Below are positions 12,851 through 16,231 of a stretch of DNA of 32,000 nt, one piece after another; positions within the stretch are counted from its first letter, which is position 1, and each line of letters opens with the position of its first letter. This DNA comes from Candidatus Baldrarchaeota archaeon. Its GTDB lineage: Archaea > Asgardarchaeota > Baldrarchaeia > Baldrarchaeales > DXJG01. Under the pieces are notes generated by a model. It worked only from the letters and a program-made list of their open reading frames with translations, was not told the DNA's origin and did no database searches. The DNA is taken from positions 1 through 32,000 of the forward strand of contig DXJG01000005.1 of NCBI GenBank assembly GCA_019056805.1, written 5' to 3'. Position numbers and translations under genes: made by a program.

Positions 12851-12979
12851 GCGGGGGTGGCCGAGCCAGGTCAAAGGTTGCTAAAGGCCGATTAAAGGCG
12901 CAGGACTGAGGCACCCTCTTTTAGGGCTCGAATCCTGTGGCGCAGGCCTGCGTGGGTTCAAATCCCACCCCCCGCACCA
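12851..12979 (+). tRNA. trnL: tRNA-Leu(GAG) with two introns: D-loop 21/22 (12875-12895, 21 nt) and anticodon loop, best fit 38/39 (12913-12932, 20 nt; a 37/38 reading would be 12912-12931)
   Basis: Acceptor GCGGGGG/CCCCCGC, discriminator A, encoded CCA, anticodon stem CAGGA/TCCTG, long variable arm, T-arm GTGGG-TTCAAAT-CCCAC. Both inserts fold into bulge-helix-loop-type splice motifs. Confidence 0.92.
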
Positions 12980-13344: not shown

Positions 13345-13905
13345 GTGAAAAAAGTAAAAATAACAAATTTAAGGGACATATTTAAACAATTACCAAAAAA
13401 TTTTATTCTCCTAGTTATAAGTTCCGTGGAGAACTATATTTCTGCCAATCTTGAAATTCTGCGAGTTTTGTTAAATGAAATGAAAATTTCTGGAGTTTAT
13501 ATTACAATCAATAGACCTTATGCCAGTTTATGCAAAATATTAAAACAGAATGGCATCAATATAGAAAAATTGTATTTTATAGATTGTGTTTCAAGTTTAG
13601 CTGGAATGCCGGTTGAAAAAACAGAAAAGTGCCGTTTTCTTAAAGGTCCATCCGCTCTCACAGACATCGGAATAGATCTTAGTGAACTCATGGAAGAAAT
13701 CAAGAAGCCGTGTTTCCTATTTCTAGATTCAATCTCAACTCTATTAACCTATAACAGTGCAGAAGCTGTTGTTTCATTTTCCCATCTGCTAATTACCAAG
13801 ATGAGACTTAAAGGACTAATGGGAGTTATCATCACTTTGGAAAAAGAATCTGAGCCTTATAAAATAATAACCCAATTTTGTGATAAAGTTATAGAGGTGA
13901 AATAA
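13345..13905 (+). CDS. Inactivated KaiC/RecA-superfamily ATPase domain protein
   Basis: Keeps GVYITINRP, LYFIDC, Walker B FLFLDSIS and FCDKVIEV. The Walker A position reads ISSVENYI, with no GxxGxGKT. Confidence 0.75.
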   Translation: MKKVKITNLRDIFKQLPKNFILLVISSVENYISANLEILRVLLNEMKISGVYITINRPYASLCKILKQNGINIEKLYFIDCVSSLAGMPVEKTEKCRFLKGPSALTDIGIDLSELMEEIKKPCFLFLDSISTLLTYNSAEAVVSFSHLLITKMRLKGLMGVIITLEKESEPYKIITQFCDKVIEVK

Positions 13906-14246
13906 TGTCTGAATGGAATGAACTAGGAAAGTTGGAAGAGATAAAAGCTCTTCTTGTACTGGATAAGGAAGGAAGAGAAGTCTATTCTAAAATACCCAAG
14001 AAATATGAGAAATTGAGAGAATGGGCTAAAGAATTTAATGAATTGATTAAGAATACGTTCAAGGAATTAAAAGCCGCTTCAAGACAAGTTACTATTGACT
14101 ATTTTAATGGCAAAATAGCAATCGTTCGTTGCTTGGAAGAACATGTCATTTTTTTAACCTCAGAATTAATCGATATGGAGAAGTTATGTAAAAAAATTAG
14201 AGAGATCGAGATTGCAAAAAAGATAGAAGATGTATTGAGGCTTTAA
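13905..14246 (+). CDS. Roadblock/LC7-like protein 1
   Basis: 113 aa with a roadblock-like pattern: helix, ALLVLDKEGREVYS hairpin, long helix, QVTIDYFNGKIAIVRC strands, terminal helix. The ATG overlaps the upstream stop. Confidence 0.65.
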   Translation: MSEWNELGKLEEIKALLVLDKEGREVYSKIPKKYEKLREWAKEFNELIKNTFKELKAASRQVTIDYFNGKIAIVRCLEEHVIFLTSELIDMEKLCKKIREIEIAKKIEDVLRL

Positions 14247-14247
14247 T

Positions 14248-14592
14248 ATGAGAACGAGATTTAAAAAAAGGATAGAAGATATAGAACCAATGGTAACTGC
14301 CTTTTTGCACGTTACAAAAGATGGAAAAGTACTCGAACAAACAAAATCGGAAAAAGCACCTAAAATCACAGCAAAGTTTCTATCTAATTCCGTAAAACTC
14401 GTAGAATTGGCGTGTGAACTTAGTTCTGAGTTTAATTTGGGTAGCCTCCAAACAATAAGTATGATGGGGAAAAAAGGAAAACTTGATTTGCATATCCTCC
14501 TACATCCCAGCTCACCAGATCTTTTTGGTATCATCTTTACTGAAAAGCCAAGCCTTGAGGAAAAAATTAAGAAAGCTTTCAAGGGGTTATAA
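14248..14592 (+). CDS. Roadblock/LC7-like protein 2
   Basis: 114 aa: AFLHVTKDGKVLE, helix, GSLQTISMMGKKGKLDLHIL (the G.l..i.i.g..g roadblock pattern). Starts 1 nt after the upstream stop. Confidence 0.65.
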   Translation: MRTRFKKRIEDIEPMVTAFLHVTKDGKVLEQTKSEKAPKITAKFLSNSVKLVELACELSSEFNLGSLQTISMMGKKGKLDLHILLHPSSPDLFGIIFTEKPSLEEKIKKAFKGL

Positions 14593-14594
14593 AA

Positions 14595-15229
14595 GTGACT
14601 CTACTTGAACAATGGCTATACTGGACACAAATCGCCTGTATAGTAATGTCAACTGTATTGACAGGGTTCATGGGGTATATATACCTCCTTAAAAGGGACC
14701 CCCCATTCTTATATGGGCTCTTGCTTGGTGTGTTGTTGCTATTAGAATAACTATTGGTTTATTTTTTCCATTCAGCTTTATAAGGGGCTTCATAAATGAT
14801 TTCCTAACCATAAGTCATGACTTGCTCTGGATCTTAGGATTAGCAGTGTTATTAGAAATGGGGAAAAAAGGAAAAGTGTATTTTCCTGTGCTATACCCCT
14901 CGACACATTCTATAATAAGTGCATTATCCTACTTTTACCTCGGTTCCAAAGTGTACGGAGCCATTGAAACCACGATTTTCGCTCATCCCATACTCCTGTT
15001 TATACTTTCTTGGTATTTTCACATATGTGCAAAAGTTACAAAAAACCTTGGTGCAAGAATTATCAGCATATCCTTCCTACTTTGGGCCTTTGACTACATA
15101 ATATTTGGAATACCATACTTTGGAATGGGAATAACAATCGCAGGAGCCATAGGCTGGTCCATCGGCCTTATCTTTAGAGTAACAATTTTCATAGGATTTT
15201 TAATGATGACAGTGAGAAAACAACATTAA
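14595..15229 (+). pseudogene. 7TM membrane protein (about 211 aa if joined) split by a -1 frameshift at the C6 run 14699-14704
   Basis: GTG 14595 opens a 51-aa hydrophobic ORF that stops at 14748-14750. The -1 frame is open from 14693 to 15229 (the ORF track shows only 14822-15229). The join at GAC CCC CCA gives YLLKRDPPILIWALAW and seven hydrophobic segments. Confidence 0.75.
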
Positions 15230-15818
15230 TGAAGTTCTGAAAAATAGTGCTTAGATAGGGATCTCTGCGAAACACCCAAAGCAACATTGGAATAGTTGGT
15301 CGCAGCTAAATTTAACATCAAAATCTTTAACTGTCCATGTCTTTAGGCGATGCAGCTTGGTTTGCCGACGACCTCCTATTCAAAATCGAAGTAGGCGGAA
15401 AAATCATGTAGGTACAATGCGGAAGATCCGATGTTTTTGAGAAGGATCCAGTAAATGGCTAAATTATACAAGGTTACTTATTTCTTCCATCTACGAAATA
15501 ATGCTAAAATAATACAACTTATTACTTAAATCAATGACAGATCATTCAGAAATTACAGTAGTAACTAGTAAAATTCTTGCGTCATAAGTATAATTAAAAG
15601 CACTTTCCAAAATTACTGGATACTCAAGACTTACCTTAGCTTATATTGCTGTATTTTTCTCCGTTCTCATGACACAATCACCCACACAGATTGAAAGTAG
15701 CTATTAAAAAATATAGTAAAAAAGGTATTTACAAAGTTTTTTGCTTAAAACATGCCAACAAAAATACGATACAATGAAAAATATACAATATAATGAAGAT
15801 AAATTTAAAAATCGTTAT

Positions 15819-15851: not shown

Positions 15852-15924
15852 GATCCCACGGGGGGTGATCGCCATGTGGGTGACACCCCTCGTGACCACA
15901 TGGAGTGACAGACCACCTCCATAA
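15852..15924 (+). other. GC-rich structured island containing an SD and a 16-aa micro-ORF (15874-15924, MWVTPLVTTWSDRPPP)
   Basis: 44/70 G+C by my count in very AT-rich surroundings. 11-bp stem 15857-15867/15884-15894, perfect 8-bp complement 15872-15879/15896-15903, SD GGGGGTGAT 4 nt before the ATG, TATA-like TTTATAAT at 15819-15826. Confidence 0.55.
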
Positions 15925-16115: not shown

Positions 16116-16231
16116 TGGAGCCGCCGGCGGGATTTGAACCCGCGACCACCGGATTTCTCGCTTTCGTTACGCATTAAAGTTACGAGTCCGGCGCATTCGG
16201 CTATTTTTTCTACCAGCTGTGCTACGGCGGC
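16116..16231 (-). tRNA. trnT: tRNA-Thr(CGT) with two introns: D-arm 22/23 (16196-16209, 14 nt) and canonical 37/38 (16155-16180, 26 nt)
   Basis: Acceptor GCCGCCG/CGGCGGC, T discriminator plus CCA, D-stem GCAC/GTGC restored after splicing, anticodon stem CCGGA/TCCGG. Strict BHB at 37/38 (CUCG/CGAG with CUUU/AAAG). Confidence 0.93.

Follow-up and report, generated by a model that had tools for sequence, protein, structure and literature searches.

What would a compact set of archaeal genes do that joins an inactive KaiC-like protein to two roadblock proteins and a seven-helix (7TM) membrane protein, with no GTPase alongside? The locus that raises this question lies in the window analysed here, by which we mean the whole stretch of 32,000 nucleotides. 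The host is an Asgard archaeon with a genome of 1.92 Mb, in which an actin match scores 459 bits, and the datasets that match it best are subsurface and marine metagenomes, with no RNA dataset among those listed. Genome-wide, we counted ten Robl_LC7 matches, 12 Arf-family matches and at least four full KaiC-type ATPases. An earlier note on this DNA had proposed that the four genes encode a receptor, an adaptor and a pseudo-ATPase switch.

The ORF coordinates bear out the tight coupling of the genes that the earlier note described: all four lie on the plus strand with intergenic gaps of -1, 1 and 2 nt (Table 1), and an SD-like GAGGTGA lies upstream of the RB1 gene. In comparisons with relatives the dN/dS is 0.09-0.25 for the four genes, where computable, with synonymous sites near saturation; therefore, these are not chance ORFs. 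The location between two tRNA genes also holds, with Rfam support for one and a reading of the sequence for the other. A run of ARAGORN detected neither of these tRNAs, because their introns hide them. The tRNA-Leu is 84% identical to the orthologous site in the congener G001.

Table 1. Features of the cassette and its flanking tRNA genes, in positions of the window
Feature	Positions	Strand	Remarks
tRNA-Leu(GAG)	12851..12979	+	two introns (D arm, anticodon loop); read from sequence; left border of the insert
Gene 1, DUF7504-type inactive KaiC/RecA-like	13345..13905	+	186 aa, intact
Gene 2, roadblock-like protein 1 (RB1)	13905..14246	+	113 aa, intact; fold probable
Gene 3, roadblock protein 2 (RB2)	14248..14592	+	114 aa, intact
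7TM gene (gene 4), 5' piece	14595..14750	+	helix 1, then out-of-frame codons until stop
7TM gene, 3' piece (helices 2-7)	14693..15229	+	-1 frame
Frameshift zone in the 7TM gene	14697..14712	+	one base short of intact relatives in DNA alignments
tRNA-Thr(CGT), right flank	16119..16231	-	two introns (D arm, anticodon loop); Rfam RF00005, 47.2 bits; anticodon read from sequence

The absence of a GTPase from the operon, also claimed earlier, is confirmed: no small GTPase lies within four genes of the roadblock genes. A GTPase at this distance is the criterion for membership in the known class of MglA/MglB and conservon systems (PMC4316618), therefore the cassette falls outside it. Nor did we see a GTPase remnant between or beside the cassette genes. 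The neighbours encode an acyl-CoA dehydrogenase, an ETF, an AIRS-domain (ThiL-like) protein and a radical SAM protein. We saw no attachment-site repeat, integrase or transposase around the insert, a promoter and terminator scan gave chance-level results only, and sequence searches of PDB and NCBIfam with all four proteins returned no match.

Two other elements share the space between the cassette and the tRNA-Thr. At 15864-15924 on the plus strand there is a 16-codon micro-ORF, with its ATG at 15874 preceded by the SD-like GGGGGTGATC. A 175-nt element surrounds it, with 76% identity in G001, where the frame, the length and both ends of the peptide are kept; among 31 genomes we found this element only in G000 and G001. 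Either a micro-peptide gene or a structured non-coding element could account for it. The stretch at 15260-15480, directly downstream of the cassette, is stop-rich, missing from the congener and without a match elsewhere in the genome, and may be another decayed gene remnant.

The first gene was thought to encode an inactive KaiC-like protein, perhaps of the DUF835 type. The motif evidence for inactivity stands and the family does not. The product passes the gathering cut-off of Pfam DUF7504 (PF24336; 34.6 bits against 27) and the cut-off of the KaiC ATPase model (29.5 bits), whereas DUF835 (PF05763) is rejected at 13.8 bits, below its cut-off of 33.1. We read the motifs from an alignment with five full KaiC-type ATPases. 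As the earlier note had it, Walker B (LFLDS) is retained and Walker A (GxxGxGKT) is replaced, the latter also in the copy at locus L012. Furthermore, Asn56-Arg57 stands at the place of the catalytic Glu pair (EE, after strand 2), and the product stops short of the C-terminal strands that bear the basic fingers. Gene 1 has a dN/dS of 0.11. It is best read as a catalytically dead KaiC-type protein which, judging by the loss of these motifs, would neither bind nor hydrolyse nucleotide. DUF7504-like proteins that have no roadblock neighbour retain the Asn-Arg motif as well.

Inactivated KaiC-like domains of archaea (iKaiC: DUF835, DUF7504 and MEDS) have been reported within archaeal response regulators (PMC5847659). 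Like gene 1, they have a RecA/KaiC core without Walker A and are tied to signalling genes. Gene 1 differs from them in being stand-alone, where they are fused to REC or PAS domains, and in having a roadblock protein as its predicted partner. Other arrangements of dead KaiC genes turned up in our searches. In another Asgard family (L002:126-3211 and L004:396-3440) a DUF7504-like protein is encoded with a full KaiC and a small helical protein, and the same operons encode two STAS-like proteins, RsbR/RsbS-like by eye. In a Thermoplasmatota genome that also has a 7TM gene, each stand-alone dead-KaiC gene (L049 and L051) adjoins a KaiC with Walker A.

Genes 2 and 3 were expected to encode two strongly divergent proteins of the roadblock fold. 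The divergence is clear: RB1 and RB2 share no significant similarity, both are far from the genome's own ten roadblocks, and neither matches Pfam PF03259 (Roadblock/LC7). For the fold, the evidence is firmer for RB2. Its AF2 model (pLDDT 73.6) runs helix-strand-strand-helix-three strands-helix and places a five-stranded sheet between one helix and two terminal helices, the arrangement that defines a roadblock. Foldseek puts MglC at the top (E 5.6e-5), followed by Ego3, Asgard roadblocks, MglB and Ragulator. In VIA the top rows are roadblocks, with a Z of 10.6 to a roadblock of MK-D1 (rmsd 2.7, 98 aligned) and longins within 1 Z. As modelled, RB2 has a roadblock fold. For RB1, the ESM Atlas features give 0.92 to a Roadblock/LC7 cluster, and a profile of the genome's own roadblocks scores 11.9 bits, above all 2000 shuffles, with an E of only 0.03 genome-wide. 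Within the modelled complex described below, RB1 and RB2 reach a pLDDT of 86-87. RB1 probably has the roadblock fold too.

A complex between the KaiC-like and roadblock proteins, as the earlier note suggested, is predicted by a three-chain ESMFold2 model of RB1, RB2 and gene 1, in which gene 1 was scored. The complex scores 0.84, and the best of three controls 0.00; the score mark is reached by 58 of 80 solved complexes and by 2 of 110 mismatched pairs, a rough guide for a three-chain job with custom alignments. The ESMFold2 runs share 100% of contacts, the partner pLDDT is at least 89, and replacing RB2 takes the score to 0.00. Nearly all of the contacts of gene 1 are with the strands and the strand 4-5 loop of RB2. 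On gene 1 the interface takes in residues 28-32, 56-68, 82-89 and 129-136, that is, the former P-loop, the former catalytic-Glu site (now Asn-Arg), residues 82-89 and the end of Walker B. Helix 2 of RB2 is absent from the confident contacts. MglA, by comparison, uses the helix 2 face of MglB.

Sequence searches found no solved relative for any chain, so it is less likely that the model merely reproduces a similar known complex. In a comparison of few relatives, conservation at the predicted interface does not exceed that of the remaining residues (Fisher p 0.10-0.84). Taken together, a single predictive model supports binding of the dead KaiC to RB2 through the beta-sheet of RB2. The pseudo-ATPase 'switch' of the earlier note is unsupported, with the nucleotide motifs lost and RB2 docked over that face in the model. 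A scaffold role for gene 1 would fit better with this placement of RB2 on the former nucleotide face. A literature search, which did not take in the main review on archaeal KaiC proteins, found no KaiC-roadblock complex.

How does this compare with better known roadblock systems? The roadblocks of Ragulator/Rag and of Asgard archaea have the three-helix roadblock fold, like RB2 (PMC10933270), and RB2 reaches a Z of about 9-10.6 to the MK-D1, Thor and LAMTOR2/3 chains. The presence of two distinct roadblocks next to each other is common to the cassette and the Ragulator/Rag heterodimers. The MglA-MglB(-MglC) systems and the conservons share the roadblock fold with the cassette, and MglC is the best Foldseek match (PMC4316618, PMC13343842). 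A membrane sensor and a roadblock in one operon is a further likeness to the actinobacterial conservons CvnABCD. Unlike MglA/MglB and the conservons, the cassette operon has no small GTPase, no histidine-kinase-like CvnA and no CvnC. It hosts two very divergent roadblocks, and an inactive ATPase where the MglA and conservon systems have a GTPase.

The fourth gene is broken. The region 14595-15229 is not one ORF: the first frame ends at 14750 after 51 aa, and the rest of the gene is in the -1 frame, open from 14693. In DNA alignments with L044, L047, L027 and L020, the intact relatives are one base longer near 14699-14712, and a run of six C (14699-14704) lies inside the frameshift zone. An assembly error is an unlikely cause, as the contigs of four sequencing runs (two possible source-sample runs and two from other studies) span the site with 0 gaps, though contigs drop rare variants. 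In columns where three intact relatives agree, the 7TM gene of the window has 7 private changes, compared with 10-25 in the intact relatives, hence the break is recent. We conclude that this is a young pseudogene next to three intact soluble genes. Read through with an X, the product is 211 aa long and has no cytoplasmic domain, so the earlier claim of a 7TM protein lacking an output domain survives, while that of an intact gene does not.

The 7TM family has 16 relatives, mostly intact and about 210-230 aa long; the 7TM protein reaches no Pfam family. The AF2 model of an intact relative, P0009, has seven helices (pLDDT 92.5) and matches a designed GPCR-like fold at Z 16.9 and natural GPCRs at 13-14.7, among them class C, adhesion and taste GPCRs (Z 13-14, 6-14% identity). 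For helical bundles a Z near 13 may indicate merely a common arrangement, and the best Foldseek E is 0.016. The nearest Atlas models (TM 0.83, 0.82, 0.74 and 0.70) are domains of HisKA, GGDEF and HD proteins. P0014, one of the relatives, carries a fused HD domain and a distant member heads a multi-PAS protein; a search for longer fused forms gave one weak match only. These neighbours among input domains, along with the HD and PAS fusions, argue for a sensor role. HisKA_7TM (PF16927) and unnamed prokaryotic 7TM input domains have a seven-helix bundle as well, with a TM of 0.83 to a HisKA-protein domain and 0.66 to HisKA_7TM. The present family differs from them in being mostly stand-alone and without a Pfam match. 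The polar residues Arg51, Asp167 and Arg195, in helices 2, 6 and 7, are invariant and may line a pocket.

Members of this family are also found alone, without KaiC or roadblock neighbours (L020, L021, L022, L024, L030, L031 and L041), which implies that the family does not need these partners. An active KaiC with Walker A directly precedes an intact 7TM gene in L027, and a broken one precedes a remnant in L017. L027 (3781-5636) belongs to the actinobacterium Ca. Geothermocultor quzhuomuensis and packs three genes together: one for a winged-helix protein, one for a KaiC-type ATPase and a 7TM gene, the last two intact. This 7TM protein is 59% identical to that of the window, and the 47 other genomes searched from the class yielded no close copy. 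Among the 48 genomes searched in the class of G400, a single one gave a close 7TM copy. The tree of the 7TM family is mostly unresolved and too weak for us to name a donor or a direction of transfer.

Is the membrane protein nevertheless still made, or is it a receptor at all? The heptamer C CCC CCA fits the pattern X XXY YYZ in the first frame and L014 is broken at the same spot, so that -1 ribosomal frameshifting, or phase variation at the C6 run, might restore the product. Yet intact relatives have no such C run, L014 is two bases short and would need the opposite shift, and no C7 variant occurs in the contigs of the four runs, which can hide rare variants. C-rich heptamers are, moreover, poor slippery sites, and we regard recoding as very unlikely. 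An enzyme or a photoreceptor in place of a ligand receptor, i.e. a ceramidase/PAQR-like hydrolase or a rhodopsin, hardly deserves credence, despite the presence of ACER3 (Z 12.4), AdipoR and rhodopsins (Z about 11-12) in the fold lists. PAQR/ceramidase hydrolases are marked by a set of Zn-binding histidines that includes HxxxH in helix 7. Neither a helix 7 His nor HxxxH, the mark of this group (CREST), is found in any full-length row; the retinal-binding Lys that microbial rhodopsins carry in helix 7 is likewise absent, the invariant residue there being Arg195. The nearest Atlas models, again, are signalling input domains.

Conservation of the gene order across Asgard archaea, which the earlier note proposed to look for, was not seen in the genomes searched. 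The congener G001 has an empty site: there about 970 nt separate the two flanking tRNAs, compared with 3136 nt here, and the flanks align while the cassette is absent. Queries with the 7TM protein and RB2 found no close copy of the cassette in 400 Asgard genomes. Given the empty site and these 400 genomes, the cassette is not a vertical Asgard feature, unlike the Asgard roadblocks; it looks like a horizontal insert and was probably acquired horizontally here. In 41 relatives the KaiC-like query gave matches of at most 36% identity, with other contexts in the four loci that were read, and the 38 genomes searched in the phylum of G402 gave no RB2 match, in a search run without a positive control.

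Elsewhere the gene order is conserved, wholly or in parts; together with the folds and the predicted complex, all three checks by which the earlier note could have been refuted thus turned out on its side. In metagenomes, five other loci or locus pairs keep parts of it, at least two of them in different archaeal lineages. L014 has all four genes in order, each broken, and L013 has the first gene, broken as in L014. In L012, gene 1 is followed by RB1, within which the contig ends, and L044/L045 hosts RB1-RB2-7TM in open frames, with ATA at the expected start. In L046-L048, gene 1 and the 7TM gene are both broken and the roadblocks are deleted. On L017, a Thermoprotei contig, a broken KaiC that has Walker A is followed by a remnant of RB2-7TM. 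Among the loci found, we saw no fully intact four-gene copy on a single contig, and most copies are decayed. L012 and L044 stem from the same sample, and each carries the half of RB1 that the other lacks, both assemblies ending at RB1 residue 58. From this, and from their GC-rich flanks, the two are probably one locus. The GC3 of this cassette (0.31-0.47) differs from that of its host (0.70-0.78), which points to a horizontal gain in another lineage; the host ProRS is 48% identical to ours. In yet another organism a broken gene 1 lies just past a tRNA 3' end (L013:749-796), which hints at a preference of the cassette for insertion at tRNA ends.

Decay of this kind invites the view that the cassette is a GTPase-deleted relic of an archaeal operon of dead KaiC, MglA and roadblocks, a cargo decaying in every host. 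The KaiC-roadblock contact would then be inherited from a larger system, and the four-gene form would never have worked alone. In keeping with this, frameshifts or deletions occur in the window and in L013/L014, L017 and L046-L048, and roadblock genes orphaned through mglA loss have been described (PMC4316618). Set against it, the gene junctions are kept across copies, and together with the near-saturated synonymous sites and the dN/dS values given above this argues that the GTPase-less form was long under selection; the lack of any GTPase remnant also speaks against a deletion. We consider such a relic unlikely. Quite unlikely, in our judgement, is a working unit made up of the soluble trio of dead KaiC, RB1 and RB2, acting on a KaiC ATPase or small GTPase of the host, with the 7TM protein an optional passenger whose loss is harmless. 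That the three soluble genes are intact beside a broken 7TM gene, that the genome supplies KaiC-type ATPases and Arf-family proteins, and that the 7TM family is often alone would all agree with a trio of this kind. The break is young, though, and decay of the trio may still lie ahead; L046-L048 have lost the roadblocks while the KaiC and 7TM remnants stay adjacent.

We cautiously favour a sensing cassette, without a GTPase and free of kinases, that moves between archaea and has recently lost its receptor here; the broken receptor and the decay of most copies elsewhere count against this reading. Such a cassette would move among archaea of hot subsurface habitats. In its intact form the stand-alone seven-helix protein would sense a ligand or a membrane state and, having no output domain, would pass the signal on by contact to a soluble complex. 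This complex would consist of an RB1/RB2 heterodimer, a presumed pairing, and the dead KaiC in its predicted contact with RB2. The dead KaiC may act as a docking scaffold that holds RB2 on its former nucleotide face, with no nucleotide switch. Output would be in trans, most likely through an active KaiC-type ATPase, as L017 and L027 favour, or alternatively through a small GTPase on the free helix-2 face of the roadblock pair. More tentatively, the cassette could represent a G-protein-free pathway, from a sensor of GPCR fold to a roadblock heterodimer and on to an inactive KaiC bound on its former nucleotide site; we treat this more specific idea as possible and somewhat doubtful.

The novelty lies in the GTPase-less four-gene form and the specific predicted interface, while each part is of a known kind. 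The cassette is rare, is broken in this strain and says little on Asgard ancestry, which limits its significance. On the other hand, archaeal signalling genes commonly encode inactive KaiC-like domains, few of whose partners are known, and a cognate GTPase is missing for many roadblock genes. The cassette turns this into a specific prediction that involves three small soluble proteins: a dead KaiC on a roadblock beta-sheet, outside the helix-2 face that serves MglA-type GTPases. Another addition is a 7TM family, as yet without a name and mostly stand-alone, whose fold is GPCR-like. If the G-protein-free pathway exists, roadblocks would be direct partners of KaiC-type proteins, and there would be a physical link between the archaeal KaiC network and the roadblock/GTPase switches.
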